A stretch of 64,000 nt of DNA from the NCBI GenBank assembly GCA_019326865.1, contig GCA_019326865.1_4101.1; one strand, 5' to 3'. The stretch's first letter is position 1, and each line of letters begins with the position of its first letter. Positions 5,099-62,499 of this stretch are shown here, piece by piece. The translations under genes were made by a program, and so were the position numbers. The notes under the pieces were generated by a model. That model was not told the DNA's origin and did no database searches. It worked only from the letters and a program-made list of their open reading frames with translations. The stretch is from a phage.

Positions 5099-5170
5099 GA
5101 GGGGCTAGTTTAACGGATAAAACAGATTCCTTCTAAGAATCCAATCGGAGTTCGATTCTCCGGCCCTTTA
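5099..5170 (+). tRNA. tRNA-Arg (anticodon TCT)
   Basis: Cloverleaf: D-stem GTTT/AAAC, anticodon stem GATTC/GAATC with loop CTTCTAA, T-arm CGGAG-TTCGATT-CTCCG; acceptor with two G-U pairs. Confidence 0.7.
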
Positions 5171-5184
5171 TAAAATATAATATT

Positions 5185-5727
<543 letters not shown>

Positions 5728-5761
5728 TACAATTATATTCCATTAATTAAAAGGGAAAACC

Positions 5762-5926
5762 ATGACCCATGAAGAATGGTTAAGTGAACTAAAGTTCAGA
5801 TACTCCGGCATAGGTAATTGGCGAAAATATCATTGGGAGATTATATCAGACCCAGCAGAATACGATAAACTTATAAATCATGAAGTGTATCCGTGGTTCT
5901 TTATTGAAATAATGGTACGAATATGA
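5762..5926 (+). CDS. small protein, MTHxEW family (54 aa)
   Basis: Begins MTHEEWLSELKFRY; SD AAAGGGAAAA upstream. Confidence 0.45.
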   Translation: MTHEEWLSELKFRYSGIGNWRKYHWEIISDPAEYDKLINHEVYPWFFIEIMVRI

Positions 5927-6083
5927 CGCATGAAGAATGGATGAATGATATTAATTTTAGATATGCAGGTATTGGTAAATGGCTAAAGTATCATTGGGAA
6001 TTCATTTCAAAGTTGCATCTGTATGATAAACTTATCAACGACCCAGAATATAAAAAGTACTTAATTGAACTAATGGTAAGAAT

Positions 6084-6087
<4 letters not shown>
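5923..6087 (+). CDS. small protein, MTHxEW family (54 aa)
   Basis: Begins MTHEEWMNDINFRY; ATGA overlap with upstream stop. Confidence 0.45.
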
Positions 6088-6248
<161 letters not shown>

Positions 6249-6261
6249 TTAAAAAAAAAGC

Positions 6262-6699
<438 letters not shown>

Positions 6700-6708
6700 G
6701 TATTCAAT

Positions 6709-6782
<74 letters not shown>

Positions 6783-6840
6783 AAATTTAATAGGAGATGA
6801 TATGTTTAACGATGAACATCCAGATTTCTAAAAAAAGTTC

Positions 6841-6869
6841 TTGACCAAATAATTCAGAACTGATATCAT
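6841..6869 (+). promoter_or_regulatory. sigma70-type promoter, family A (variant)
   Basis: TTGACC-N17-TATCAT, spacer AAATAATTCAGAACTGA. Confidence 0.45.
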
Positions 6870-6901
6870 GTTTGTATATCAACAACAGAGGGTATATCGA
6901 A

Positions 6902-7141
6902 ATGGGTAAATATTTTGTGAGTTATAGTTATAATGTATCACGAAAAATTCCACGTGGTGACGGAATGGGATGGTCTTATGATGCATATACTTTAAATGAG
7001 TCATGTATCATCGAATTAAAAGAAAAAGACCTTGACATTCTAAAAATCAAACAATATATTCTTGATGTTGAATTGGCACATCGTACTGATATCTATCCAG
7101 ATGTAAATAACATCAGCATCTTAGTACTAACCAAAGTATAA
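6902..7141 (+). CDS. hypothetical protein
   Basis: Track ORF 6872..7141 trimmed to ATG 6902 downstream of promoter. Confidence 0.4.
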   Translation: MGKYFVSYSYNVSRKIPRGDGMGWSYDAYTLNESCIIELKEKDLDILKIKQYILDVELAHRTDIYPDVNNISILVLTKV

Positions 7142-7153
7142 GATAAAAGCACT

Positions 7154-7443
<290 letters not shown>

Positions 7444-7444
7444 T

Positions 7445-7537
<93 letters not shown>

Positions 7538-7554
7538 TTCACATGATATAGGGA

Positions 7555-7816
<262 letters not shown>

Positions 7817-7824
7817 GAATTTAA

Positions 7825-8226
7825 ATGAAAAAGAATGACTTGATCAAAATGCTTCAAGAAATTGACGGCAATCCAGAGATTGTTATTTGGAATGGATACG
7901 TCGATGATTATATGAACATCGAAAAAGGCTTGACTAAAATCACTCTAGTCAAAGAAACCGAACAGTTTCTTCAGGGTGCATTAGAGCACGAATGGTGTGA
8001 ACGTAACAATACATTCGACATTCCAGAAGACCAACGAACCAAGATTGCAGAACGTGCTAAAGAACTGCATAAGAAACGCGAATACGATTTCCAGAACCCA
8101 TATGTCACTGAAGACGAATTCAATCGCTGGTACGGTAAAAAGAAATTGACAAAGTATGTCCTTTCACCTAAACTACGTGGTAAGACTTCACTTGGTGTAT
8201 TCAACGCCGCAGACTTAAACTACTAG
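7825..8226 (+). CDS. hypothetical protein
   Basis: 133-aa ORF, co-oriented. Confidence 0.5.
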   Translation: MKKNDLIKMLQEIDGNPEIVIWNGYVDDYMNIEKGLTKITLVKETEQFLQGALEHEWCERNNTFDIPEDQRTKIAERAKELHKKREYDFQNPYVTEDEFNRWYGKKKLTKYVLSPKLRGKTSLGVFNAADLNY

Positions 8227-8238
8227 CGGGTATTATAA

Positions 8239-8503
<265 letters not shown>

Positions 8504-8547
8504 GATTCCCGATTCAGTAGTTTTAAAGCTGACCCGTATGTGCCTAT

Positions 8548-8589
<42 letters not shown>

Positions 8590-8590
8590 G

Positions 8591-8647
<57 letters not shown>

Positions 8648-8649
8648 TT

Positions 8650-8730
<81 letters not shown>

Positions 8731-8731
8731 G

Positions 8732-8782
<51 letters not shown>

Positions 8783-8799
8783 TACAACCGACAATGACT

Positions 8800-8874
<75 letters not shown>

Positions 8875-8926
8875 TGCCAAACAGCTTGAAGTACTTTGTA
8901 GTGCTGCACCTATGCCGACACTTGGC

Positions 8927-9027
<101 letters not shown>

Positions 9028-9039
9028 TATCTTACTTCT

Positions 9040-9129
<90 letters not shown>

Positions 9130-27814: not shown

Positions 27815-28006
27815 ATGCTGATTTATCAATGTGATAATATTCGTGTTCTACAACATCCTTATCTTCAAATCTTTCATGTTCAGATGTTTATGGAAGGTGA
27901 TAATCCGAGAACTTATGAACGCACATATGATTATTTCACGGTCAAAGAGTGCGACAACATCGATGAAGTACGACGATTAGTACATGAACTCCAAAACAAA
28001 GGTTGA
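27815..28006 (+). CDS. hypothetical protein
   Basis: 63-aa ORF ending at terminator. Confidence 0.45.
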   Translation: MLIYQCDNIRVLQHPYLQIFHVQMFMEGDNPRTYERTYDYFTVKECDNIDEVRRLVHELQNKG

Positions 28007-28032
28007 CTTCGGTCAGCCTTTTTTGTTATAAT
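28001..28032 (+). promoter_or_regulatory. terminator-promoter cassette (GGTTGACT hairpin + T-run + TATAAT)
   Basis: GGTTGACTTCGGTCAGCC + T6, TTGACT in stem acts as -35 for TTATAAT ~17 nt downstream. Confidence 0.55.
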
Positions 28033-28060
28033 TATTTTATATTCTAATGGAGTTTAAATT

Positions 28061-28501
28061 ATGTTAGTATATCGTTTTGAACTTAAATTTAGTTACATTG
28101 AACCTTATTTGAAACCAGCAACAAATGTTGGTCCATTTGCACGGTATTCTTCAAAATACAGTACTAAAAATGGTTTTGACCGTTTGTATATGTCTACGCC
28201 TACTCAGTTCCAACCTGAACCAACTGATGATGGAATCTATTCAATCAAATATGGATGGGCATTTGGCTGTCAAAGTTTGAATGATTTGTTTCGGTTCTTT
28301 ACTATGGACTTGGGTAAATTACATCGTGCTGGGTTTGCTATTTCCGTATATGACGTACCTGATAATCATGTGGATATTGGTCGTAATCAGGTTCAGTACT
28401 ATTGCGGTAGTGCAATATTGGTTCGTATCATGTCAGTTAAGGATGCAAAGGTGGAGTACCGTCAAAGTAAAAGAGTAATACATGAGGTTCTATATGGATA
28501 A
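28061..28501 (+). CDS. hypothetical protein
   Basis: 146-aa ORF. Confidence 0.5.
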   Translation: MLVYRFELKFSYIEPYLKPATNVGPFARYSSKYSTKNGFDRLYMSTPTQFQPEPTDDGIYSIKYGWAFGCQSLNDLFRFFTMDLGKLHRAGFAISVYDVPDNHVDIGRNQVQYYCGSAILVRIMSVKDAKVEYRQSKRVIHEVLYG

Positions 28502-30788: not shown

Positions 30789-30795
30789 TAGAAAT

Positions 30796-30822
30796 GGGGT
30801 TGACTTCGGTCGGCCTTTTTTT
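30796..30822 (+). terminator. rho-independent terminator (GGTTGACT-hairpin family)
   Basis: GGGGTTGACTTCGGTCGGCC + T7. Confidence 0.65.
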
Positions 30823-30867
30823 ATATAGTAAATATATGAAATAACAAAGATTCAGGGATTATATTTC

Positions 30868-32052
30868 ATGGCTAGTGGGATACGATTAACACAAGAAGAA
30901 GCTGAAAAATTAGTAGCGAATAGATGTTTAGAACAAAATTATACATATAAACCTTTCACTTATATTAACACTAAAACAATATTAGAACTTAAATGTGATA
31001 ACTTTGAACATGAAGAATGGAAATGTAAATTTAGTAAATTCATTTACAAAAGAACTGGGTGTCCAGAATGTAAAGGAAGAAATTCTTTAAAAGAAAAAAC
31101 AGCAAGAACTAAAGTTCATGAAATATGTGAATTAAAAGGATATACTTATGAACCATTTGATTTTAACGGTGCTATAGGAACAAAAATAATAATTCATTGT
31201 GGAGTTGACTCCCATAAACCACATGAAACTAATTATAATTCTTTAGTTAATAAGAAAAATGGATGTATTGAGTGTGGTGGAAAGTTAAAATTAACCCAAC
31301 AACAAGCAGAATTAAATGTAATTAACATATGTAATACTACTGGATATACTTATAAACCTTTTGAATATAAAAATAATAGAACTAAAATTACATTAAAATG
31401 TTGCAATCCAGACCATGATGAATTTAGTTTAAGTTATGATAAATTTGTATATCAAGGTAATGGGTGTGTAAAATGTGGAAATCAATCCACAGCTAGAAAA
31501 CTTTGTCTTTCACAAGATGAATCAATTAAAAGGCTTAATGAAATTTGTACATCTAAAGGATATACTTATAAACCATTTATATATAAAAATGTACATACAT
31601 TAATTACATTAAAATGTTCAGAATGTGAACATCCTGAATGGACAACTCGATATCAAAATATTGTTCAAAAGCAAAGAGGTTGTCCAAGTTGTAGTCGAGG
31701 TGGATATGACCCAAGTAAACCTGGTTATTTTTATATACATCGAGTTCTAGGTAATGGTAGGATATATTATAAATTTGGTATAACAAACAATTATATATAC
31801 AGATTTGAACAATATAATAAGAACTTATTTAGAACTGAAAAATATAAAACATATTACAGTACTGATGGTATTTTAATCAAAGAACTTGAATATTTTATTA
31901 AACATATGAGTGGCATAAAAAGAAAAGTTATTGATAAAATAAATTATTTGGACGGGTATACTGAAACAATCAATGAATCAGAATATGAAAAATTAATAAA
32001 AATAATTGAATCATATAATGTACAAGAACTTGATGTGAACAGTATTAAGTAG
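30868..32052 (+). CDS. GIY-YIG/T5orf172-like nuclease with four N-terminal Cys-containing repeats
   Basis: Four ~60-aa repeats each with YTYKPF and GCPEC/GCIECG/GCVKCG/GCPSC; C-terminal PGYFYIHRV...IYYKFGITNN...RFEQY. Confidence 0.5.
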   Translation: MASGIRLTQEEAEKLVANRCLEQNYTYKPFTYINTKTILELKCDNFEHEEWKCKFSKFIYKRTGCPECKGRNSLKEKTARTKVHEICELKGYTYEPFDFNGAIGTKIIIHCGVDSHKPHETNYNSLVNKKNGCIECGGKLKLTQQQAELNVINICNTTGYTYKPFEYKNNRTKITLKCCNPDHDEFSLSYDKFVYQGNGCVKCGNQSTARKLCLSQDESIKRLNEICTSKGYTYKPFIYKNVHTLITLKCSECEHPEWTTRYQNIVQKQRGCPSCSRGGYDPSKPGYFYIHRVLGNGRIYYKFGITNNYIYRFEQYNKNLFRTEKYKTYYSTDGILIKELEYFIKHMSGIKRKVIDKINYLDGYTETINESEYEKLIKIIESYNVQELDVNSIK

Positions 32053-32095: not shown

Positions 32096-33337
32096 ATGCC
32101 TAGTGATTATAATAATGGTGATATGAAGCACAGAAATGGTGCAATTGTTCAACATTCAAAACGCAAGTCGGAGTACCGCCCTGCTGGAAACTATCATAGT
32201 GGTAGAAAAATGAGTCGTAACCAAAGCACTGGTGCACAAGGTGTAGAAAATGCAAAGCCAGGTGAAGTAACAGATACTTCCAAAATGAATCAACATGAAA
32301 AATTAAAATACATGAATGCTTTGGGATTACTTAATGCTCATCAAAAAGAGCAACTAGCTGCAATGGATAAAGCACAAGAACGACCAGAAGCAGCAGAAGC
32401 CCCCGCACAATCAAAAGCGACTAACCCTGTCAAAGAACTGTCTGATAAGTTAGGTAAGATCTTTGCAAATAAACCCCAACTTATTCAAGGTATTGTCAAA
32501 GAATTGCAATCTGTACCTAAAGAAGAATTAAAAGTCAAAGCACAAGCTGTTCTGGATGCAATGAAAGGAAATACCAGTACTGAACCAACCGAAGTATTCA
32601 GTACTATTATGCGTGCACTGGAAGGTAAACAACAAGGTGAAGAACGTGGTGATGAAGTAAGTCTTGAACGTGTTCTTAAAACATTTGATAGTATTGGGAA
32701 AGAAGACCGTGTTAATGCACAACAGGTTAAAAATGTACTAGCAAAATTGGAAAACCGTCTAGAAGGTAAAGATGATAAGATTAAATTGGTATCCGATGCA
32801 GTTGAAAATGCACTTAAATCTTATGTACAAGGTGAAAAGAGTCGTTTTGTAACTGCTATGGATGCTGCATTCAATACTATGAAAAAGTACGAAGCGGATC
32901 ATGGAGAGAAGGTAACACGAGATGGTTATTTGATGCGTGATGATGAAGAAGGTGCAGTGGAACAGAATGATGTTCATTCTGACGAAGATATTGATGACAT
33001 GGAAGCAGAACTGTCACAGGACCGCCAAATGACTGAAAAATCTCACAATGAACTAAAGAAATTAATGCAGTGGGTTGCAGACGTAGGTGAAAAGGCGGGT
33101 GCTGACAAGAAGAGTATCAACCGAAACCTAAGTTGGATTAAAGATAAGGTTGGTAATAACGCTCGTAAACTACAAAAAGCATGGACTGATGTAGTGAATG
33201 GTGCAGTAGATATTGACGTTGAATCTGGTGAAGCATATGATTATGCATTGATTACACTTGATGATTCTTTTCGTGACTACGAAAAAGGAAACGTGACTCC
33301 TTGGGAAAAAGACATAATGAGCAAATACGGTAAATGA
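32096..33337 (+). CDS. hypothetical hydrophilic Lys/Glu-rich protein
   Basis: 413 aa; SD AAGGAGGG; EKLKYMNALGLLN motif shared with 30405 ORF; visibly higher GC than neighbours. Confidence 0.55.
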   Translation: MPSDYNNGDMKHRNGAIVQHSKRKSEYRPAGNYHSGRKMSRNQSTGAQGVENAKPGEVTDTSKMNQHEKLKYMNALGLLNAHQKEQLAAMDKAQERPEAAEAPAQSKATNPVKELSDKLGKIFANKPQLIQGIVKELQSVPKEELKVKAQAVLDAMKGNTSTEPTEVFSTIMRALEGKQQGEERGDEVSLERVLKTFDSIGKEDRVNAQQVKNVLAKLENRLEGKDDKIKLVSDAVENALKSYVQGEKSRFVTAMDAAFNTMKKYEADHGEKVTRDGYLMRDDEEGAVEQNDVHSDEDIDDMEAELSQDRQMTEKSHNELKKLMQWVADVGEKAGADKKSINRNLSWIKDKVGNNARKLQKAWTDVVNGAVDIDVESGEAYDYALITLDDSFRDYEKGNVTPWEKDIMSKYGK

Positions 33338-33346
33338 TAACAAAAA

Positions 33347-33370
33347 GGTTGACCTCGGTCAGCCTTTTTT
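33347..33370 (+). terminator. rho-independent terminator (GGTTGAC-hairpin family)
   Basis: GGTTGACCTCGGTCAGCC + T6. Confidence 0.65.
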
Positions 33371-33406
33371 GTTATCATAGCTTTCCTAACTACAAAGGAT
33401 GACGTG

Positions 33407-34048
33407 ATGACTAAGCAAGAAATATTCAAAACATTAATTGACATTTTACGTTCATCTAAAACTCGTTGTGCAATGGAGTTTGATATTCCTTACGCTGAAC
33501 GAGTCATCTTTCCACAAGTAAAAGAGGCAGGGCTTACTTTACTTGGTATGGGGATGTACTCTGTAGTAGTTGAACATAAAAACTATCCAGGTCGTGCATT
33601 TAAAGTAACCACGTCACGATGGGATGGTTTTCGTGCTTATGCAAAGTACTGTATTGATAACACAGGAACTAAGTTTCTTCCTGTAATATACAGTGCAAAC
33701 GAGCAAGGAAACTTTGGATGGTATGAGATGGATAAGTACTACCCTATCATTAAACAAAAAAACAATTATGATGACTTTGTTAGCACTAAAATTGGAGATT
33801 TGTATTCGTATGCACATGCTGGTCAGCACGTAACTTCAGTGAATGAACTGCGTGGAAATTCAGAAGAGATTGCAATTGCAACTGTTGTAGCTAACATAAT
33901 GAAAGAGTTTCATGGTCGTTTTGTACCAGACATTCATTCCAGTAATGTAATGATGGATAAAGATGGAAATTTATTCATCACTGACCCTATTTCGTGTGAT
34001 GTACGTCGAGAAATACCAATCACTGAAGAAGACCCAATTTTTTATTGA
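33407..34048 (+). CDS. putative atypical protein kinase-like protein
   Basis: Gly-rich loop LGMGMYSVVV, AFKV lysine strand, catalytic-loop-like DIHSSNVMMDKDG, ITDPI (DFG-like). Confidence 0.4.
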   Translation: MTKQEIFKTLIDILRSSKTRCAMEFDIPYAERVIFPQVKEAGLTLLGMGMYSVVVEHKNYPGRAFKVTTSRWDGFRAYAKYCIDNTGTKFLPVIYSANEQGNFGWYEMDKYYPIIKQKNNYDDFVSTKIGDLYSYAHAGQHVTSVNELRGNSEEIAIATVVANIMKEFHGRFVPDIHSSNVMMDKDGNLFITDPISCDVRREIPITEEDPIFY

Positions 34049-34111
34049 CAGAACTTGTGTTCTGGTGTATATTAAGTGAATTATAAACAAATTGTGACAC
34101 AGGATTAAATC

Positions 34112-36078: not shown

Positions 36079-36106
36079 TTGACAAACACATTCAGTACTG
36101 TATAAT
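36079..36106 (+). promoter_or_regulatory. sigma70-type promoter, family A, followed by stem-loop
   Basis: TTGACA-N16-TGTATAAT with TTCAGTACTG spacer; downstream hairpin GGGGATGA/TCATCCC. Confidence 0.6.
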
Positions 36107-36153
36107 GCTTATCAAGGGGATGAACTTCTCATCCCTACAATCGAGGAACGACC

Positions 36154-37582: not shown

Positions 37583-37852
37583 ATGTACGCATTGTATAAT
37601 AAAGAAAAGAAACAATTTGCTAAGGTTGAAATTTCGATTGATACATTTGATATGTTGGAGTACTGTATTGTAACGGACCCATGTGCTAACTTGTATTACG
37701 TTCATGATGACGTATCAGTACTGCAACGATTGCTTGAGAGTTCAAAAAGTCAATGTCAGGGAATCCATGATGGTTCATCCTATGAAACTCCTGAGTGTTC
37801 ATATGGCTGTCTGGATGGATATGAGATTGTTAAGTTAGGGATCGTTGAATAA
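37583..37852 (+). CDS. hypothetical protein
   Basis: SD GGAG before ATG 37583; track start 37565 rejected. Confidence 0.45.
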   Translation: MYALYNKEKKQFAKVEISIDTFDMLEYCIVTDPCANLYYVHDDVSVLQRLLESSKSQCQGIHDGSSYETPECSYGCLDGYEIVKLGIVE

Positions 37853-37868
37853 AGAAAAGGGTTGACTT

Positions 37869-37901
37869 TAGTCAGCCCTTTTTTCTATAATCATTTCATC
37901 G
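37869..37901 (+). promoter_or_regulatory. terminator-promoter cassette (PeSL-like)
   Basis: GGGTTGACTTTAGTCAGCCC + T6 + CTATAAT, then conserved CATTTCATC leader and GGAAGGAT SD. Confidence 0.6.
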
Positions 37902-37919
37902 GAACGGAAGGATGTTGAA

Positions 37920-38402
37920 ATGAACTATTTAGATTTAATTAATACGTATGTCATCAGCCCATATCTTAACGATGAAAGTATCAAATGTGTAGTATCTGTT
38001 GATAATCATCCAAATGGTGCATTAGAACTATTCGGTGCAGGACAGATTAACAATCGTTGTGGGTATACTTTTGAGTACTTACCAGAAAGAGATGTATTTG
38101 GTTGTTATGACCACAAAATCAAAAAAGGTGCTATATGGGGTAATCACAAAGATATTGCACAATCTTCACTTTTCGAAGATCATAATGGATATATGTGGCG
38201 TTCTCTTGGTGCAGTCCTACTTGATATCGCCCGTAGATATAAAAAGCGTATAACTCTTACTTATACACATACAGTTGAATATAAAAATGAAGTACAAGTA
38301 GAAGATGAAGAATTTTTTAAAAGTATCCCGTACATTGAATTCAACTTCCAAAACGGGTATGCTATATATCCTGATGATTTTATTGGTGAAAAATATTTTT
38401 AA
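37920..38402 (+). CDS. hypothetical protein
   Basis: 160-aa ORF downstream of cassette. Confidence 0.55.
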   Translation: MNYLDLINTYVISPYLNDESIKCVVSVDNHPNGALELFGAGQINNRCGYTFEYLPERDVFGCYDHKIKKGAIWGNHKDIAQSSLFEDHNGYMWRSLGAVLLDIARRYKKRITLTYTHTVEYKNEVQVEDEEFFKSIPYIEFNFQNGYAIYPDDFIGEKYF

Positions 38403-38493
38403 AAAATATTTGAAAAGAAAAGAATAAGTGCTATAATTATTACATCAAGACAACAAACACTAACATGTAAACGCTACTAATTAGGAGACACAC

Positions 38494-38904
38494 ATGATTA
38501 ACAAACATTTCGCAGTTTCTAAAACAGTAACCATCGATAACGAATGGGAAATTACTATTCTTAATGATCCTGCTCGTGGGTTGCTTGCAGAGAATCTTGT
38601 ACAGAAATACATCGACTGTAAGTCTGAATTGATTATTCACGACCGTACCAAATTTCTTCTCATCAATGGCAAGAAGTGTAAAGTATTAGTATTCACGGAT
38701 AAAATGAGCCGTGCAGACATTATCACCAAATTGGTAAGTTCTTCACGTCACCGCCCAGGAGTTAACAAATCTATCGAAGAAGTTAAAGATATGAAGCCTG
38801 GTGATTTATTCATTATTGCGGGTTTTGATTCTAAAACAAGAGAAATGTACATTTCAGAAATGTACACTAATGCTGAAATGCGTAACAAATTCTTCTCTAA
38901 CTAA
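38494..38904 (+). CDS. hypothetical protein
   Basis: 136-aa ORF. Confidence 0.5.
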   Translation: MINKHFAVSKTVTIDNEWEITILNDPARGLLAENLVQKYIDCKSELIIHDRTKFLLINGKKCKVLVFTDKMSRADIITKLVSSSRHRPGVNKSIEEVKDMKPGDLFIIAGFDSKTREMYISEMYTNAEMRNKFFSN

Positions 38905-38935
38905 TCAACCTAATTATGTATTATACAAATCTATA

Positions 38936-40153
38936 ATGGATAAAAATATGATCTTCGAAACAGAAAAAACTTTACTTGAAACTTATACTTTAGAAAATCT
39001 TGTACAACTTAATCTGGCCCGTCCTGATATTCAACGAAACTGGCAATGGAAAAGTAATAATCAAAATAATCTTATAATTTCTATTCTAAAGAATTCACCA
39101 ATTGGACAATTTTTGGTATGGAATGAAACTTCTTCAAATACAATGTACATTACTGATGGACGCCATCGTTATACTGTAATTTCAAACTTCATTAATAATA
39201 AGTTCCCAGTAACAGTTAAAACCGAAAGTGGAACCAAAGATTATTATTATGGTTCTGACGATCCAATCGAAGAAGAAAACATTTCACTAAAACTTGGTGG
39301 TAAAAGTAAGACTTGGAATTTCTTATCAAAAGAAGAGCGTAATGCTTTTCGCAATAAAGAAGTATCAGTAACATTTGTTCATACAGATGATGCTGAGAAG
39401 ATTTCTGAAATGTTTATGGCTATCAACACTGCTTCATCTAATTTGTGTAAAGTAGACTTGCTGGTATGCAAGCACCACAAAAATGCATACATGAAACGTA
39501 TTGATAAACTATTTTCAATTGAGATTGAAAAAGATGACCAAATGGCAGTTCTAGTTAGCGATTTCTATCGTGCAATCGGACACTGTAATGTCAACGGTAA
39601 TTACGAGAAACATTTAGCTAAACTTAAAGCTAACCCAAAAGTTCAGAAGCGTGAATTTTTTGAGATGTATTTTATGGTACGAGCCTTCACCAAATTGTGT
39701 CGTGATGCTTTAAACGATACATTGAATTCATATCGTATGCCTAAGATGAATAAACAAATTGAAGATGCTATTATTAGTACTGAATCACTGAGTGAACAGC
39801 AAGCTAACGCCGATTTTGTTCAGTTCGTGAATGCAGTTCGTGAGATGAACCTTGTATCTCCAATAAAAGATTTACAAAAGTTTCAATTCATCCACGAAGA
39901 TATGAAGAATACCTTTAACAAGCGTCTTTTTTGTATCTTAATGGGATTATATTATGCTTACGGTACACGTTTACCATTGCATTTTCGTGATGTTTGGTGT
40001 GCCATTTATAATGAAATGTCAGAAAAAAGTACTGAACTACCAACAAACGGGACTGATAGTTCTTCTGCTATTGTAGCTGGTATCCAATTGATTGAACCGT
40101 ACTTTAGTTCAGCCTTTAATAATATTTCATTGAGTGCTCGCGTGGGAAAGTGA
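38936..40153 (+). CDS. DUF262 (ParB/Srx-like) domain protein
   Basis: N-terminal ...PDIQRNWQWK...LIISILKNSPIGQFLVW...YITDGRHRYTVI matches the DUF262 pattern (DGxxR); track start 38801 trimmed to ATG 38936. Confidence 0.55.
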   Translation: MDKNMIFETEKTLLETYTLENLVQLNLARPDIQRNWQWKSNNQNNLIISILKNSPIGQFLVWNETSSNTMYITDGRHRYTVISNFINNKFPVTVKTESGTKDYYYGSDDPIEEENISLKLGGKSKTWNFLSKEERNAFRNKEVSVTFVHTDDAEKISEMFMAINTASSNLCKVDLLVCKHHKNAYMKRIDKLFSIEIEKDDQMAVLVSDFYRAIGHCNVNGNYEKHLAKLKANPKVQKREFFEMYFMVRAFTKLCRDALNDTLNSYRMPKMNKQIEDAIISTESLSEQQANADFVQFVNAVREMNLVSPIKDLQKFQFIHEDMKNTFNKRLFCILMGLYYAYGTRLPLHFRDVWCAIYNEMSEKSTELPTNGTDSSSAIVAGIQLIEPYFSSAFNNISLSARVGK

Positions 40154-40362
40154 AAAATCGTGGAATACTAAATATTTCACAAAAACAATATATTTTGAAA
40201 AAATATCCCGTTTGTTATCTTTGTAAACAATTTATATTAGATACAGATAAACCACACTTTGATCATGTACAGTCATTGAAAAATGGTGGTAGTAATGACC
40301 TAGAAAATATTAGACCAACGCACCCCATTTGTAATTTACGCAAAGGTGCTAAAAGTATGTAG
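40150..40362 (+). CDS. HNH endonuclease (small, overlapping upstream gene)
   Basis: CYLCKQ...HFDHVQSLKNGGSNDLENIRPTHPICNLRKG; GTG start overlaps upstream stop. Confidence 0.65.
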   Translation: MKNRGILNISQKQYILKKYPVCYLCKQFILDTDKPHFDHVQSLKNGGSNDLENIRPTHPICNLRKGAKSM

Positions 40363-40411
40363 AATAAAGACTCCCATTGACTGGGAGTCTTGTTATATTA
40401 AAAGGATTTAT

Positions 40412-41248
40412 ATGAGTATTAAAAATAAATTAGATCAGTATTATACAAAACCAGAGTATGCTGTAGATTGTTATACTAAATCATTAGAATTAATTTCTGA
40501 ACGTATGGATATTAGTTCATCGTATTTTATGGAACCATGTGTCGGTACTGGTTCATTTTATCTACAATTTCCTGAAGAACGTCGTTTTGGTTGTGATATC
40601 GAACCAGTACATCTTGATGAAAATGTTATACATTCTGATTTTTTGCTTGAGTTCGGGATTAATGCAAGAAGTAAAGGTGAGCCAATAATTGTTATAAGTA
40701 ATCCACCATTTGGTAAGATTTCTTCTTTGGCTATCAAATTCTTTAATAAATGTGCATCTATGCCTGAAGTGAAATATATTTGTTTTATTGTACCTAAGAC
40801 ATTCCGTAAAGTTGCAACACAGAATAAACTAAACGAGATGTTCCATCTTGTTCTTGATGAAGATTCACCACATGATGCTTTTATTCTGCATGGCGAACCG
40901 CATCATGTACCATGTGTATTTCAGATATGGGAGCGTAGAGATGAAGTTCGTGAACAACACGAAATTAAAAATAAATCAAACTACTTCCAGTTTTGTACTA
41001 AGGATGAAGCGGATATTTACATTAAGCGTGTAGGAACTAAAGCTGGTGAGTATGCTGCACCTGGTAAAGAACACAAAGATGCAAGTATGTACTACATTAA
41101 AACTGATTATGTTGATGAAATTATTAGAATTTTGCAAAGTGAAGACTACATTGACGAGATTAAACGTATACGCAAAACCACCGCTGGTGTATTCTGTGTA
41201 TCTAAATCTGAACTTGTACTGAACATTGAAAAACGTTTGAATTTTTAA
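40412..41248 (+). CDS. gamma-class amino (N6-adenine or N4-cytosine) DNA methyltransferase
   Basis: Motif order X-I-IV: DQYYTKPE, EPCVGTGSF, ISNPPFG; track start 40346 trimmed to ATG 40412 after hairpin. Confidence 0.7.
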   Translation: MSIKNKLDQYYTKPEYAVDCYTKSLELISERMDISSSYFMEPCVGTGSFYLQFPEERRFGCDIEPVHLDENVIHSDFLLEFGINARSKGEPIIVISNPPFGKISSLAIKFFNKCASMPEVKYICFIVPKTFRKVATQNKLNEMFHLVLDEDSPHDAFILHGEPHHVPCVFQIWERRDEVREQHEIKNKSNYFQFCTKDEADIYIKRVGTKAGEYAAPGKEHKDASMYYIKTDYVDEIIRILQSEDYIDEIKRIRKTTAGVFCVSKSELVLNIEKRLNF

Positions 41249-41254
41249 AATACA

Positions 41255-41287
41255 GGGTTGACTTAGGTCAGCCCTTTTTGCTAAAAT
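41255..41287 (+). promoter_or_regulatory. terminator-promoter cassette (PeSL-like)
   Basis: GGGTTGACTTAGGTCAGCCC + T5 + TAAAAT, leader TCTTTCATC, SD GTGAGGAT. Confidence 0.6.
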
Positions 41288-41315
41288 TCTTTCATCGAAA
41301 CGTGAGGATGAATAC

Positions 41316-41831: not shown

Positions 41832-41869
41832 AGGAAAGGATTGACTTCGGTCACATAAAGGAACATAAC

Positions 41870-42064
41870 ATGTTATTAGTATATTCAAAGCGTTTCTGGA
41901 TTTCTTTTATTGTACTATCGCTAATCGGCTTCGGTGTGAGTATACTCTTTTCGTGGGATGAATTGGGCACATGGTATTATGAAGTCCCGTGGTACATGAA
42001 GATAGCTCCTTGTTACGCGGCATTGTTCGTATCATTCCTTATTGTTGTCTTCAGCGAGGATTAG
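41870..42064 (+). CDS. small membrane protein
   Basis: 64 aa, two hydrophobic helices. Confidence 0.45.
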   Translation: MLLVYSKRFWISFIVLSLIGFGVSILFSWDELGTWYYEVPWYMKIAPCYAALFVSFLIVVFSED

Positions 42065-42171
42065 TTGATGTAGTATGTTCTACATCAAAAGTATTTGGAT
42101 ATTTGAGATATAAACATTGACACATGTTCTATCTTTCTGTATTATGTACATCACCAAATGAGGAATACAAC

Positions 42172-42531
42172 ATGGCATCTTTAAGTGAAATCGCGGAATA
42201 CAATCCACTAACAATCTCAACAATTCAACGTACAAAAACTTTTTATTTCCGTCCTGTTGATGGATGGAAACGTGGAATGAATAGTGACTATCGAGTACTG
42301 GAAGATTCACTCATCGAGCGTATCAACTCTGAACTACAGAAGTATGAAGGTGTTAAAGTTGTACGTTCAACTTCTCGTTATTTTGAGTACTATATTGAGT
42401 CTTTAACAGTAAATGAAAACTCATCATCATCTGTGGATAACACTGATATTCTTCGTAATGCAGTTGGTCTGTTATGCAACATTGCAGAAGAAATGGGATT
42501 AACTATCACAACAATGAGTGAAATAGAATAA
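42172..42531 (+). CDS. hypothetical protein
   Basis: SD GAGGAA before ATG 42172; track start 42124 rejected. Confidence 0.5.
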   Translation: MASLSEIAEYNPLTISTIQRTKTFYFRPVDGWKRGMNSDYRVLEDSLIERINSELQKYEGVKVVRSTSRYFEYYIESLTVNENSSSSVDNTDILRNAVGLLCNIAEEMGLTITTMSEIE

Positions 42532-42538
42532 CAAAAAA

Positions 42539-42571
42539 GGGTTGACTTTAGTCAGCCCTTTTTGCTATAAT
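42539..42571 (+). promoter_or_regulatory. terminator-promoter cassette (PeSL-like)
   Basis: GGGTTGACTTTAGTCAGCCC + T5 + CTATAAT + CATTTCATC leader + GAGGAT SD. Confidence 0.6.
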
Positions 42572-42599
42572 CATTTCATCAACTGATGAGGATAACGAA

Positions 42600-43373
42600 A
42601 TGAACCGTACAGAGAAAGCACTCCAAATTGAAAAGAACTTCAACTCCATGATGGCAGCACTGGAATGTCTTCTTGATACACAAACTAACTCGATCAACTC
42701 GCTGATCGTTTCTGGTAAAGGTGGTGTTGGTAAAACTTACAATGTTGACCAACGGTTACAGAAAGCTGATGACAACTTTGAAATCGACTACAAGAAAATC
42801 AGTGGTAAAGTAACTACTGTAGGTCTGTACGAAGCACTGTATCGTTCACGTCATGCTGCTTCAGTACTGTTACTTGACGACGTTGATATCTTCTCTGATG
42901 AAACGAATATTGATTTGCTTAAAGCTGTATTGGATACTTCTGAGAAGCGTGTAGTGTCTTATGCTACATCTGCGAAGTACCTGGAACAGCAGGGTATCCC
43001 TAAACAGTTTGAATTCCGTGGTAAAGTAATCTTTCTGACTAACAAAAATCTGTCACAGATTGCTAAAGGTAAAAGCAGTTTAGCACCACACATTGATGCA
43101 CTGATTACTCGTAGTATCTTTGTTGACCTGCAACTGTTCACCAACGAAGAAGTTATGATTCACATTGAGAATATCATGAACAAAACTAACATCCTTGAGA
43201 ACAATGGTGTTAACAAAAATGGTTGTAAAGCAATTTTGAACTGGATGTTGAGTAATGAAGATCGTCTGCGTTCACCTTCACTGCGTATGCCAGTACTGAT
43301 CGCTGGACTGTATAATAAATTCCCATATGATTGGGAGTCAATGGCAGAGAATATGTTCCTTGAGAAAAATTGA
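42600..43373 (+). CDS. P-loop NTPase with deviant Walker A (ParA/MinD-like?)
   Basis: SGKGGVGKT Walker A and hhhhDDVD Walker-B-like LLLDDVDI. Confidence 0.4.
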   Translation: MNRTEKALQIEKNFNSMMAALECLLDTQTNSINSLIVSGKGGVGKTYNVDQRLQKADDNFEIDYKKISGKVTTVGLYEALYRSRHAASVLLLDDVDIFSDETNIDLLKAVLDTSEKRVVSYATSAKYLEQQGIPKQFEFRGKVIFLTNKNLSQIAKGKSSLAPHIDALITRSIFVDLQLFTNEEVMIHIENIMNKTNILENNGVNKNGCKAILNWMLSNEDRLRSPSLRMPVLIAGLYNKFPYDWESMAENMFLEKN

Positions 43374-48089: not shown

Positions 48090-48162
48090 AATTTCTCTCC
48101 TTCATTCATTATACTGTATTTAACCCAATTAAGAAAAGCCAGTATCAAGTACTGGTATTTTA

Positions 48163-49512: not shown

Positions 49513-49584
49513 ATTTCCCTCCTTTATTCATTATACTATATTTAATACTAAAAGAAAAAGCCAGTATCAAGTACTGGCATTATG

Positions 49585-51950: not shown

Positions 51951-52023
51951 ATTTTCCTCCTTTATTCATTATACTATATTTAATACAAAAAGAAATGCCA
52001 GTATCAAGTACTGGCATATTAAT

Positions 52024-57932: not shown

Positions 57933-58619
57933 AAAATTTTTATTTTGTTTTTCCAATAGTTCCCCTACCGCGTGAGGATATTTTTCCCCGCAGTATCTGG
58001 AGTTAGATTTTTCTGAATCTGGAATCATTATCTAATAAACTGGGGGCAATGTCAACCGCCTGGATGAATATTTTTAAAAATAATCTAGTACTGAATTTTG
58101 GGCGTAACTATGCACCCGGTGGGCTTGAGTCTTTCTCGACTTGATGAAACTATTATACAGTACTAGAAAAATAAAGCAATACCCTAAACGCAAAAAATTT
58201 AATTAATTTGCTTGCTATCCTGGGCCGTACTATGGTACTATTAGTTCAGTACTGAGAAAGTGCTTTAACCTGCTAGGGTGCGGGAGTGTATCCTTTTTAA
58301 ATTATATGAATTTTGGACGCAATCCCGCACCCTGTGGGTTAGTGCCTTGTGTCCGGCTTATGTAGTAATTATACGCTTTTTCAGTACTGAGTCAATAGCT
58401 AAAAACAAAAATAATTGAAAATAATTTAACGCGTTTAAACGGCCCGTAAAGCCCTGGAGTGATTGGAATGGTACAAATGTATAGCTTAGGTGTATTAATG
58501 CGTTAGAATGCGTCTGAGGCCGTTTTACGGGGTGTAGTGGTGATTTGGTTGATTCAGTACTGAATGATAGTATTCCTATATAGAAAGAAAACTATTTTAA
58601 AAGTACATGTAGAAAGTAC

Positions 58620-60093: not shown

Positions 60094-60340
60094 GCAGTTT
60101 ACAAATCTTTACAATTGCCGGTATTGACTTAAAATGTCAGTACTGGCATAATGTATCTATTGAAACGAACAATTTGGCCCACGGGGTGCGGGAGTGTATC
60201 TATAGAAAAAGTAGTTTAGTACAGTTACAATTGTGCACCCGGTGGGTTAGCTGTTGTCATGGGGTATATTATGCCAGTACTTGATAATGCTGTCAATACC
60301 TTTTTACTATTCAGTACTGAAAACTATTTGATAAAAAGTA

Positions 60341-62366: not shown

Positions 62367-62499
62367 CAGTACTGAATAATTTAATAGACGGATCTATGCA
62401 CCCAGTGGGTTAGTGACTGTTTCGTCTTTATGTAGTAATTATGCCAGTACTGGATGCACTTGTCAACAACTATTTTTCAAATACTTTTTATTAAAATAC

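Follow-up and report, generated by a model that had tools for sequence, protein, structure and literature searches.

Repeated early-promoter/stem-loop cassettes (PeSLs) were described in the T4-like phages phi1 and RB49, where promoter and terminator activity, an association with insertions and deletions (indels) and the formation of mini-circles have all been demonstrated, and where five positional subclasses are distinguished, including one whose stem-loop overlaps the −35 hexamer (Arbiol, Comeau & Krisch 2010, PMC2839356). A later paper extended PeSLs to PST/T4 and to nt-1/KVP40, those of nt-1 having the stem consensus A3-4G3-loop-C3T3-4 (Comeau, Arbiol & Krisch 2014, PMC4122927). Here we analyse a 64,000-nt stretch of phage DNA (GenBank assembly GCA_019326865.1, contig GCA_019326865.1_4101.1; hereafter the window), which belongs to a new member of Asteriusvirus, the 121Q/PBECO4/G17 group of ~350-kb Rak2-like jumbo coliphages. 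A short hairpin followed by a run of T recurs between its genes, and in six of seven full copies the 5′ arm of the stem carries the −35 hexamer of the next promoter. With a probability of roughly 0.7, we read these cassettes as PeSL-type composite units that combine a terminator, a promoter and portable homology in an early, all-plus-strand region of small genes.

The comparison with the described systems supports the assignment of the cassettes to the PeSL-type terminator/promoter elements, in a jumbo-phage lineage. As in phi1 and RB49, an intergenic, near-consensus sigma-70 promoter is combined with a G/C-clamped stem-loop terminator, with a Shine–Dalgarno (SD) sequence and a start codon at the 3′ end; many copies in direct orientation are clustered among small, non-essential open reading frames (ORFs); and the copies sit at the boundaries of insertions, deletions and replacements between close relatives. 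On the other hand, phi1 and RB49 are T4-like Straboviridae whereas the present phage is a ~350-kb Asteriusvirus, and the activities and mini-circles were established there by experiment whereas here they are predictions from sequence. In place of the five positional subclasses of phi1, in which the stem-loop lies mostly between the −35 and −10 hexamers or over the −10, a single architecture is used here: the 5′ arm invariably holds the −35, the loop is in most cases UUCG, the T-run serves as spacer, and the −10 has a TGn extension. A −35 inside the stem is already within the published PeSL definition; and the restriction of that definition to T4-type phages (Straboviridae), outside which the window falls, is a taxonomic limit of the original description and not a mechanistic criterion.

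The window element also fits the nt-1 stem consensus and shares the indel association given for nt-1 and KVP40 in that paper; KVP40, itself one of the Straboviridae, carries AAAAAGGGTTGACTACGGTCAGCCCTTTCTTGTATTAT at 85,851, and VH7D carries the exact core. In the same source, however, the −35 consensus is TTGYVH and the legend of figure 3 places the stem-loops just upstream of the promoter (PMC4122927), and KVP40-type genomes hold one to four copies of the exact core, against five to nine in Asteriusvirus. The morons of lambdoid phages are similar in being autonomous transcription units inserted between resident genes, yet moron flanks are neither conserved repeats nor regarded as a means of mobility (PMC2839356), whereas the flanks here are one repeated sequence and the joins run from cassette to cassette. 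Identical elements are present, annotated as terminators only, among the ARNOLD features of the G17 record and as Torf39, Torf515, Torf518 and Torf520 in Table S8 of the CBB study (PMC5259590 supplement); the overlapping promoter, the repeat family and the link with indels go unremarked in these sources, and the CBB promoter table omits the cassettes. Beyond such terminator lists, nothing was found in the searchable literature that treats the cassettes of Asteriusvirus or other Rak2-like phages as dual elements or as linkers for recombination, and searching full texts for the core sequence gave no paper.

Architecture of the cassettes

Seven full copies of (A)nGGGTTGACTTnnGTCAGCCC followed by a T-run are present, all on the plus strand between 19.9 and 42.6 kb, with none elsewhere in the window; pattern search places the hairpin starts at about 19882, 28000, 30797, 33346, 37859, 41255 and 42539. 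A 20-mer pattern with up to three mismatches gave six plus-strand starts, and a slightly looser search added copy 4 (33347). With reverse-strand readings included, the 20-mer search gave 10 matches against none in 100 dinucleotide-preserving shuffles, which rules out a chance or low-complexity artefact; the minus-strand 'matches', like 34 'CTGAC' copies, are reverse readings of a near-palindrome and were removed by keeping the better-matching strand. The unit as a whole measures ~67 bp and combines, between two genes, a terminator with the promoter of the next gene. All copies are co-oriented with the genes and start 6-10 nt past a stop codon, and six of the seven show the PeSL layout of a sigma-70-like promoter and a stem-loop followed by an SD and an ATG or GTG, in intergenic spacers of 54-79 bp, four of them 66-68 bp long.

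The copies lie in direct orientation within 23 kb of the 64 kb, in a region of small ORFs, as is typical of PeSL clustering, and six of the seven exact-core copies of 121Q lie in its homologous region. This part of the window (15-47 kb) is a dense array of ~70 small plus-strand ORFs, mostly hypothetical, which starts near the gene for a phage RpoD-like sigma factor and contains a protein kinase and endonuclease V; a comparable region was proposed as early by the authors of the CBB study (PMC5259590). The window is matched best by UE-S1, at 96-97% identity across 58-80% of the region, and by ph0011, at 86-88% across ~90%.

Copy 5 (37853-37919) fills the 67-bp spacer between the stop codon at 37850-37852 and the ATG at 37920, which reads TAAAGAAAAGGGTTGACTTTAGTCAGCCCTTTTTTCTATAATCATTTCATCGGAACGGAAGGATGTTGAAATG. 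Its hairpin at 37859-37878, GGGTTGACTTTAGTCAGCCC, has the loop TTTA and folds at −18.1 kcal/mol (z −6.0); the −35 at 37862-67 is followed by TATAAT at 37886-91, the leader CATTTCATC and the SD AAGGAT. It forms the left boundary of a 3.4-kb insert, of which copy 6 (41249-41315; hairpin 41255-41274, −15.1 kcal/mol; −35 41258-63; TGn and TAAAAT 41282-87; ATG 41316) is the right boundary; copy 6 precedes the gene for the pyrimidine-dimer glycosylase (endonuclease V, endoV). Copy 7 (42532-42599; −35 42542-47; TGn and TATAAT 42566-71; ATG 42600) has at 42539-42558 the same hairpin as copy 5, down to the rare TTTA loop and the −18.1 kcal/mol. The −10 regions of copies 5, 6 and 7 (CTATAAT, GCTAAAAT and GCTATAAT) lead into (C/T)(A/C)TTTCATC, then GAGGAT or AAGGAT, and ATG.

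Upstream of these, copy 2 (27998-28060; hairpin 28000-28019, −13.9 kcal/mol, z −5.4) carries the −35 TTGACT at 28003-28008 and, after a spacer of 18, TGn and TATAAT at 28027-32, an 11/12 promoter match, ahead of the ATG at 28061; the TGA stop (28004-28006) of the upstream ORF 27815-28006 falls inside its −35. Copy 3 (30789-30867; hairpin 30797-30816 with the 3′ arm GTCGGCC, −12.9 kcal/mol; −35 30800-05; TATAGT 30824-29; ATG 30868) is the left boundary of a replaced segment. Copy 4 (33338-33403; hairpin ~33346-33365, −16.4 kcal/mol; −35 TTGACC 33349-54; TGn and TATCAT 33373-78) precedes a gene that starts at GTG 33404 and is annotated as a protein kinase in relatives. Copy 1 (19875-19912; hairpin 19882-19901 and a run of seven T, −16.0 kcal/mol, z −5.1) stands downstream of the phage sigma-factor gene, has no −10 at 17/18 bp and is predicted to be a terminator only. 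Finally, a truncated, degenerate plus-strand copy at 41832-41869, GGATTGACTTCGGTCA, has the core GGATTGACTTCGGTCAC at 41838, but its 3′ arm is incomplete and neither T-run nor −10 is present; it passes into unrelated sequence ahead of an SD and the ATG at 41870, and it folds no better than shuffled sequence (−3.2 kcal/mol, z −0.6).

Between copy 1, with the sigma-factor gene, and the next gene, 662 nt (19875-20536) are devoid of ORFs, and this spacer is conserved in relatives; UE-S1 annotates a repeat_region inside it, and it ends with a TTGACA-N17-TAGAAT promoter. Repeat and Rfam searches of the spacer found no significant repeats and no RNA family.

The seven full copies form stems of 9-13 bp with a 4-nt loop, at energies between −12.9 and −18.1 kcal/mol and z-scores between −3.6 and −6.0, and a run of 5-7 U comes after every stem; they are predicted intrinsic terminators, with which the independent ARNOLD calls in the G17 record and in Table S8 of the CBB study coincide. 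When the plus strands of the window and eight relatives were scanned, without reference to the core, for any 7-bp GC-rich stem with a 4-nt loop and a T-run, all 66 of the 66 hairpins found belonged to the cassette family. A known RNA family was rejected on the evidence of Rfam, which at the gathering threshold reported in the whole window only six tRNAs at 5-9 kb and nothing at the cassettes, and at E≤1 around copy 1 gave sub-threshold chance matches only. The six tRNA genes are clustered on the plus strand at 5099-9118.

The promoter half is equally regular. In the six promoter-bearing copies, a spacer of exactly 18 bp separates TTGACy in the 5′ arm from a downstream TATAAT, TATAGT, TATCAT or TAAAAT, for a score of 10-11/12, and an extended −10 (TGn) is present in four of them (copies 2, 4, 6 and 7). 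In a pooled set of 152 unique copies from the window, eight Asteriusvirus relatives and IMG/VR loci, a −10 hexamer (≥5/6) stands at spacer 17/18 in 119 (78%), against ≤4% at each other offset from 10 to 29, and 95 of these 119 also have TGn. Aligned on the −10, A is found at +7 in 124 of 139 copies and a pyrimidine at +6 in 131 of 139, the canonical Y-A start-site signature at the canonical distance, for which the retrieval did not select. Because the search for IMG/VR loci required an exact match to the core, counts for the core are inflated, whereas the −10 and start-site columns are unaffected; IMG/VR matches with neither T-run nor −10 (GGTTGACTTCAGTCAGCCacacgaac..., ...GCCagcagat...) look like unrelated coding sequence and were filtered out by requiring the T-run.

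Much of this layout had been read correctly in the original prediction, which was made from the letters alone. The recurrent ~26-bp element with its T-run is there, in seven full plus-strand copies where shuffling predicts none; the interval it singled out, 37869-37919, lies within the cassette at 37853-37919; and the degenerate copy that it placed at 41838 is present, without T-run and −10. Its start points are right throughout except 37869, a 10-nt slip for 37859. It gave a −10, a leader and the SD GAGGAT for three copies, and these do occur there (the SD being GAGGAT or AAGGAT), but the −10 is not limited to the three, and hexamers at the same 18-bp spacing also follow the hairpins at 28001 (TATAAT), 30798 (TATAGT) and 33347 (TATCAT).

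Cassettes and gene turnover among relatives

The homologous regions of G17, UE-S1, ph0011, 121Q, CRJP21, CMSTMSU, JNE01 and A4 were compared, and breakpoints were mapped relative to the cassettes as the original prediction had proposed. Gene-level synteny covered 69 junctions, eight of them with cassettes. Among the five close relatives (~86-97% nucleotide identity), six of the eight cassette junctions are indel boundaries, against 3 of the 61 others (Fisher p=1.8e-5), and five of eight events have both ends in cassettes. Nucleotide alignments break at 30826-30837, at 33324-33370, at the pairs 37845-37914/41246-41255 and 41853/42537, and at 42529-42604; at three of these joins neighbouring blocks of the alignment have 47-76 bp in common, and at the ph0011 join 18 bp, the common stretch being the cassette. 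At base level, an empty allele consists of the left flank, one cassette and the right flank, and a filled allele has a cassette at each end. At the copy 4 site, for instance, G17, 121Q and CRJP21 have three extra genes between two cassettes (query overlap 33324-33370). Opposite the truncated copy at 41838, ph0011 has one intact cassette and lacks 41870-42531, the shared sequence stopping in the hairpin after ...GTCA.

Three events among the close relatives lie outside the cassettes. One of them, at 22290-22317, where alignments overlap by 28 bp, has as its boundary a repeat of that length from another early-promoter unit and fits the same principle as the cassette joins. This other repeat, which occurs at 22268-22320 and 36080-36130 without an upstream terminator, reads TTGACA-N16/17-(CAGTACTG)TATAATG(T/C)TTAT(AT)CAA(A/G)GGG; in G17, two copies of it flank an extra gene (a 121Q_173 homologue).

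Between copies 5 and 6, a cargo module of five plus-strand ORFs (37920-41248) encodes proteins of 160, 136, 450, 70 and 300 aa. The 450-aa protein has a GmrSD_N domain (Pfam), the 70-aa protein is an HNH protein, and the 300-aa protein is annotated as an N6-adenine methyltransferase in ph0011; the whole may be a phage-carried restriction or exclusion-type module. It is missing from G17, UE-S1, 121Q and CRJP21, which have a single cassette there, and CMSTMSU, JNE01 and A4 likewise lack the cargo genes. A search of 50,697 phage records for the GmrSD_N protein gave ph0011 and, with no more than 22% identity, GAP32 as its sole other carriers, a distribution that is no evidence for or against transfer between families. 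Several alleles exist of the slot at 42540. The window and UE-S1 have it empty, while ph0011, in which the two-gene module at 41870-42531 is also missing, has a single cassette directly after endoV. In G17 (+1.4 kb), 121Q (+2.2 kb), CRJP21 (+2.0 kb), JNE01 and A4 the slot is filled, with a cassette at each end and differing cargo, namely a conserved 77-79-aa gene and a 372-565-aa gene whose similarity from phage to phage is confined to the N-terminus.

Just 3′ of copy 3, the window has a 394-aa ORF (30868-32052) with CapR-homology and treble-clef zinc-finger (DUF4379) domains; UE-S1 and ph0011 are without it, and their cassette stands directly before the homologue of 32096-33337. Downstream of copy 3, relatives (L001 16761-16800, L004 16763-16800) carry TATACTATAAATATAG, which contains the T4-type late-promoter motif TATAAATA, where the window has ATAGTAAATATATG at 30817-30867. 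In 121Q the downstream genes are annotated as structural, and copy 3 may therefore pair its terminator with a late promoter.

The composite-unit reading would work as follows. In the RNA of the upstream gene, (A)nGGGUUGAC-UUCG/UUAG/UUUA-GUCAGCCC-U5-7 would fold into an intrinsic terminator, and in the duplex DNA the 5′ arm of the same stem would supply the −35 TTGACT, the 3′ arm and T-run would serve as the 17-18-bp spacer, and the end of the T-run would give the TG of an extended −10 (TGnTATAAT). A sigma-70-type RNA polymerase, with host sigma-70 or possibly the phage RpoD-like factor, would start transcription at the conserved A 7 nt past the −10, that is, downstream of the hairpin, and the new mRNA would therefore be free of it. 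With a terminator and a promoter at each junction, the downstream gene block would thus be insulated from read-through and freshly transcribed. Because the same 50-65 bp recur in direct orientation every few kilobases, the copies would also be portable homology: recombination between two of them would delete the intervening block, recombination with a cassette-bearing donor would insert or swap one, and every product would keep its terminator and promoter. The cassettes would then cause the rearrangements rather than mark them.

Several points weigh against this reading. When the distant relatives JNE01, A4 and CMSTMSU are added, cassettes are still boundaries at six of eight junctions, but so are 24 of the 61 ordinary junctions (Fisher p=0.063), and only 5 of 25 events have both ends in cassettes; most longer-term gene turnover therefore needs no cassette. 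Coincidence with boundaries is not causation, as insertions may survive best at the edges of transcription units. The orthologous copies in the pooled set are not independent, and its core counts are inflated. The 18-bp spacer of the window copies is one above the optimum, and the −10 boxes of copies 3 (TATAGT) and 4 (TATCAT) are weaker. For no Asteriusvirus did the searchable literature yield mapped 5′ or 3′ ends of transcripts, reporter assays or a time course of infection, and for this reason termination, initiation from the cassettes and their early timing are predictions. The cassettes are hot spots for recent events, but one route of gene turnover among others.

Alternatively, the cassettes could be genuine terminator/promoter units with no part in recombination, the rearrangements being illegitimate or homing-endonuclease events of which those at transcription-unit edges survive, in a moron-like accretion. 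With the distant relatives included, both ends fall outside cassettes in 16 of 25 events; the region holds HNH and other endonuclease genes; and one breakpoint, inside a hairpin, left a truncated copy and not a clean exchange. Yet illegitimate joins would be expected to leave variable scars, whereas five of the eight events among close relatives are exact cassette-to-cassette joins, with one cassette when empty, two when filled and 50-76 bp shared at the join, and even the event at 22290-22317, outside the cassettes, has a promoter repeat of 28 bp at its boundaries. The identical hairpin of copies 5 and 7, with a loop seen in 2 of 50 unique copies, also hints at exchange between copies. We therefore regard a purely passive role as unlikely. 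The original prediction had called the cassettes a variant of PeSLs: a PeSL-like role in shuffling agrees with the boundary counts and with the one- versus two-cassette joins, but 'member' is a better word than 'variant', since −35-overlapping stem-loops are listed in PMC2839356 and KVP40 has the same core.

A probable dual constraint on the hairpin stem

Conservation was assessed in a set free of retrieval bias, the 50 unique copies from the unbiased scan of the window and eight relatives. Positions T3, T4, G5 and C7 of the 5′ arm are invariant, while the 3′ arm shows 13 substitutions in which only wobble preserves the pairing (G16 to A 11 times, A15 to G twice). Pair 3-16 is a T.G wobble in most copies and T-A in the others, and never the stronger C-G. 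The sole change in the 5′ arm, A6 to G, is accompanied by the compensating T13 to C and is limited to the copy after the sigma-factor gene, which has no −10; G17, 121Q and CRJP21 have GGTTGGCTTATGCCAACC at this site, keeping the stem and losing TTGACT. The loop comes in 13 variants, TTTA being found in two copies. A frozen 5′ arm facing a drifting 3′ arm would follow from a double use of the 5′ arm, as stem in the RNA and as −35 in the DNA, with the 3′ arm needed as stem only. The retained T.G wobble breaks the symmetry of the DNA, giving CTGAC and not TTGAC on the opposite strand, and would, we infer, avoid an antisense −35. The C(UUCG)G tetraloop explains why the hexamer is TTGACT instead of TTGACA.

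The same data bear on the view that the elements are simply duplicated intrinsic terminators, with TTGAC an inherited part of the stem and the −10 boxes either extended −10 promoters independent of a −35 or AT-rich noise. Sigma-70 promoters with a TGn extended −10 can indeed work without a good −35, copy 1 has no −10, and the G17 and CBB annotators saw terminators only, the MEME-derived promoter table of CBB being without the cassettes. But 78% of unique copies have the −10 at a fixed distance of 17/18 bp from TTGAC, other positions being very rare, and a Y-A start site follows at the canonical distance; a mid-stem T.G wobble is kept, the T to C change that would strengthen the stem being never observed, and the sole change that destroys the −35 occurs, compensated, at the one site without a −10. 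This explanation thus appears quite improbable, and the proposal in the original prediction that TTGACT in the stem doubles as a −35 is borne out in silico, by the −10 at 17-18 bp in 119 of 152 copies, the Y-A signature and the frozen 5′ arm.

It is very improbable that the near-palindrome TTGAC-N4-GTCAG is the operator of a dimeric phage regulator, or a hairpin for RNA processing or stability, for although it is palindromic, conserved in sequence as well as structure and present at every regulated junction, its loop is free to vary, its GC-rich stem and U-run are those of a textbook intrinsic terminator, the asymmetric conservation of its arms is not what an operator would predict, Rfam gave no match to it, and its phages infect such diverse hosts that a single common regulator is unlikely. 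A miniature inverted-repeat or other transposon was rejected, there being no transposase and no target-site duplications, and the element being always co-oriented with genes, between a stop codon and the next SD.

Distribution across phages and other repeats

The consensus 47-mer occurs at 545 places in 165 deposited phage records of several families. Asteriusvirus genomes have 5-9 places each; it is also present in other Rak2-like jumbo phages (RaK2, K64-1, Muenster, CBB, Serratia BF, Yersinia fHe-Yen9-04 and jumbo phages of Erwinia, Xanthomonas and Stenotrophomonas), a group in which carriers of the unit span at least eight host genera, in the T4-like Vibrio phages KVP40, VH7D and ValKK3 and Aeromonas phages 65 and AS-zj, in ~150-kb phages of Cronobacter, Pectobacterium and Enterobacter, in a Desulfovibrio phage and in Brochothrix phage A9, whose host is Gram-positive. 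A 358,663-bp IMG/VR contig also holds cassette copies. Part of the transcribed leader (ATCGAAAC...) is common to several of these phage groups. It is conceivable, though doubtful, that the cassette is a pan-phage, horizontally exchanged linker, a 35-45-bp terminator/−35/TGn/−10 unit often with the same leader; if so, shared homology would let insulated gene modules move between unrelated phage families. A plausible alternative is that phages have repeatedly converged on a single near-optimal way of making a terminator and a promoter overlap, because nearly every base of the core can be rationalised in terms of function, the T.G wobble included, which maintains the pairing of the RNA while preventing a mirror-image TTGAC: the A-tract, the GGG clamp, TTGAC, the C(UUCG)G tetraloop, the complementary arm, the T-run, TGn and TATAAT. 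The shared leader somewhat favours common descent or horizontal exchange. The IMG/VR contigs L041/L034 (161,858 bp) and L009/L024 (118,833 bp) have three exact hairpin cores, but their −10 region differs (GGCATTAT/GCATTATG) and their leaders are rich in purines; they gave no megablast match among deposited phages and therefore represent an uncharacterised lineage that uses the same hairpin.

Other repeated elements were seen in the window. At 34045-34073 lies a PeSL-like element of another subclass, in which the hairpin CAGAAC-TTGT-GTTCTG stands between a TTGACA −35 and a TATATT −10, and the TGA stop of the upstream gene falls inside TTGACA. On the minus strand, a second hairpin with T-run at 48139-48156, 49560-49578 and 51995-52017, (AT)GCCAGTACTTGATACTGGC(AT) followed by ...ATTAAATATAGTATAATGAATAAAGGAGG...ATG, precedes an apparent tandem array of paralogous minus-strand genes that all start ATGTTACCTTTT. 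A third family (minus strand 58113-58123, 58328-58338, 60236-60246 and 62399-62409; plus strand 60178-60188; five matches against 0.55 expected, no Rfam match) has a strong sigma-70-like promoter (TATTGACa/t ... CAGTACTGGCATAAT) with CTAACCCAC[A/C/T]GGGTGC 25-30 nt later, and may represent short non-coding RNAs or a leader element; its CCCAYAGGGTG motif also follows GGGTTGACTTCGGTCAGCCC cassettes in 121Q and other jumbo-phage contigs.

If the cassettes are PeSL-type composite units, the idea of regulatory cassettes that double as recombination linkers would extend from T4-like phages to the ~350-kb Rak2/121Q group, whose genes are mostly unannotated ORFans and whose published annotations give the cassettes as terminators only. 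In this region the cassettes offer ready predictions of transcription-unit boundaries, and they flag slots where accessory cargo is swapped, such as the 37920-41248 block and the multi-allelic slot at 42540; such slots would be of use in annotation, as safe insertion sites for the engineering of jumbo phages and in the search for genes that may act in defence or counter-defence. Terminator and promoter overlap here base by base, with an asymmetric pattern of conservation, which makes the cassette a clear natural case of dual coding in regulatory DNA and a compact part for synthetic biology, and the recurrence of the cassette across phage families raises the testable question of convergence versus horizontal spread.

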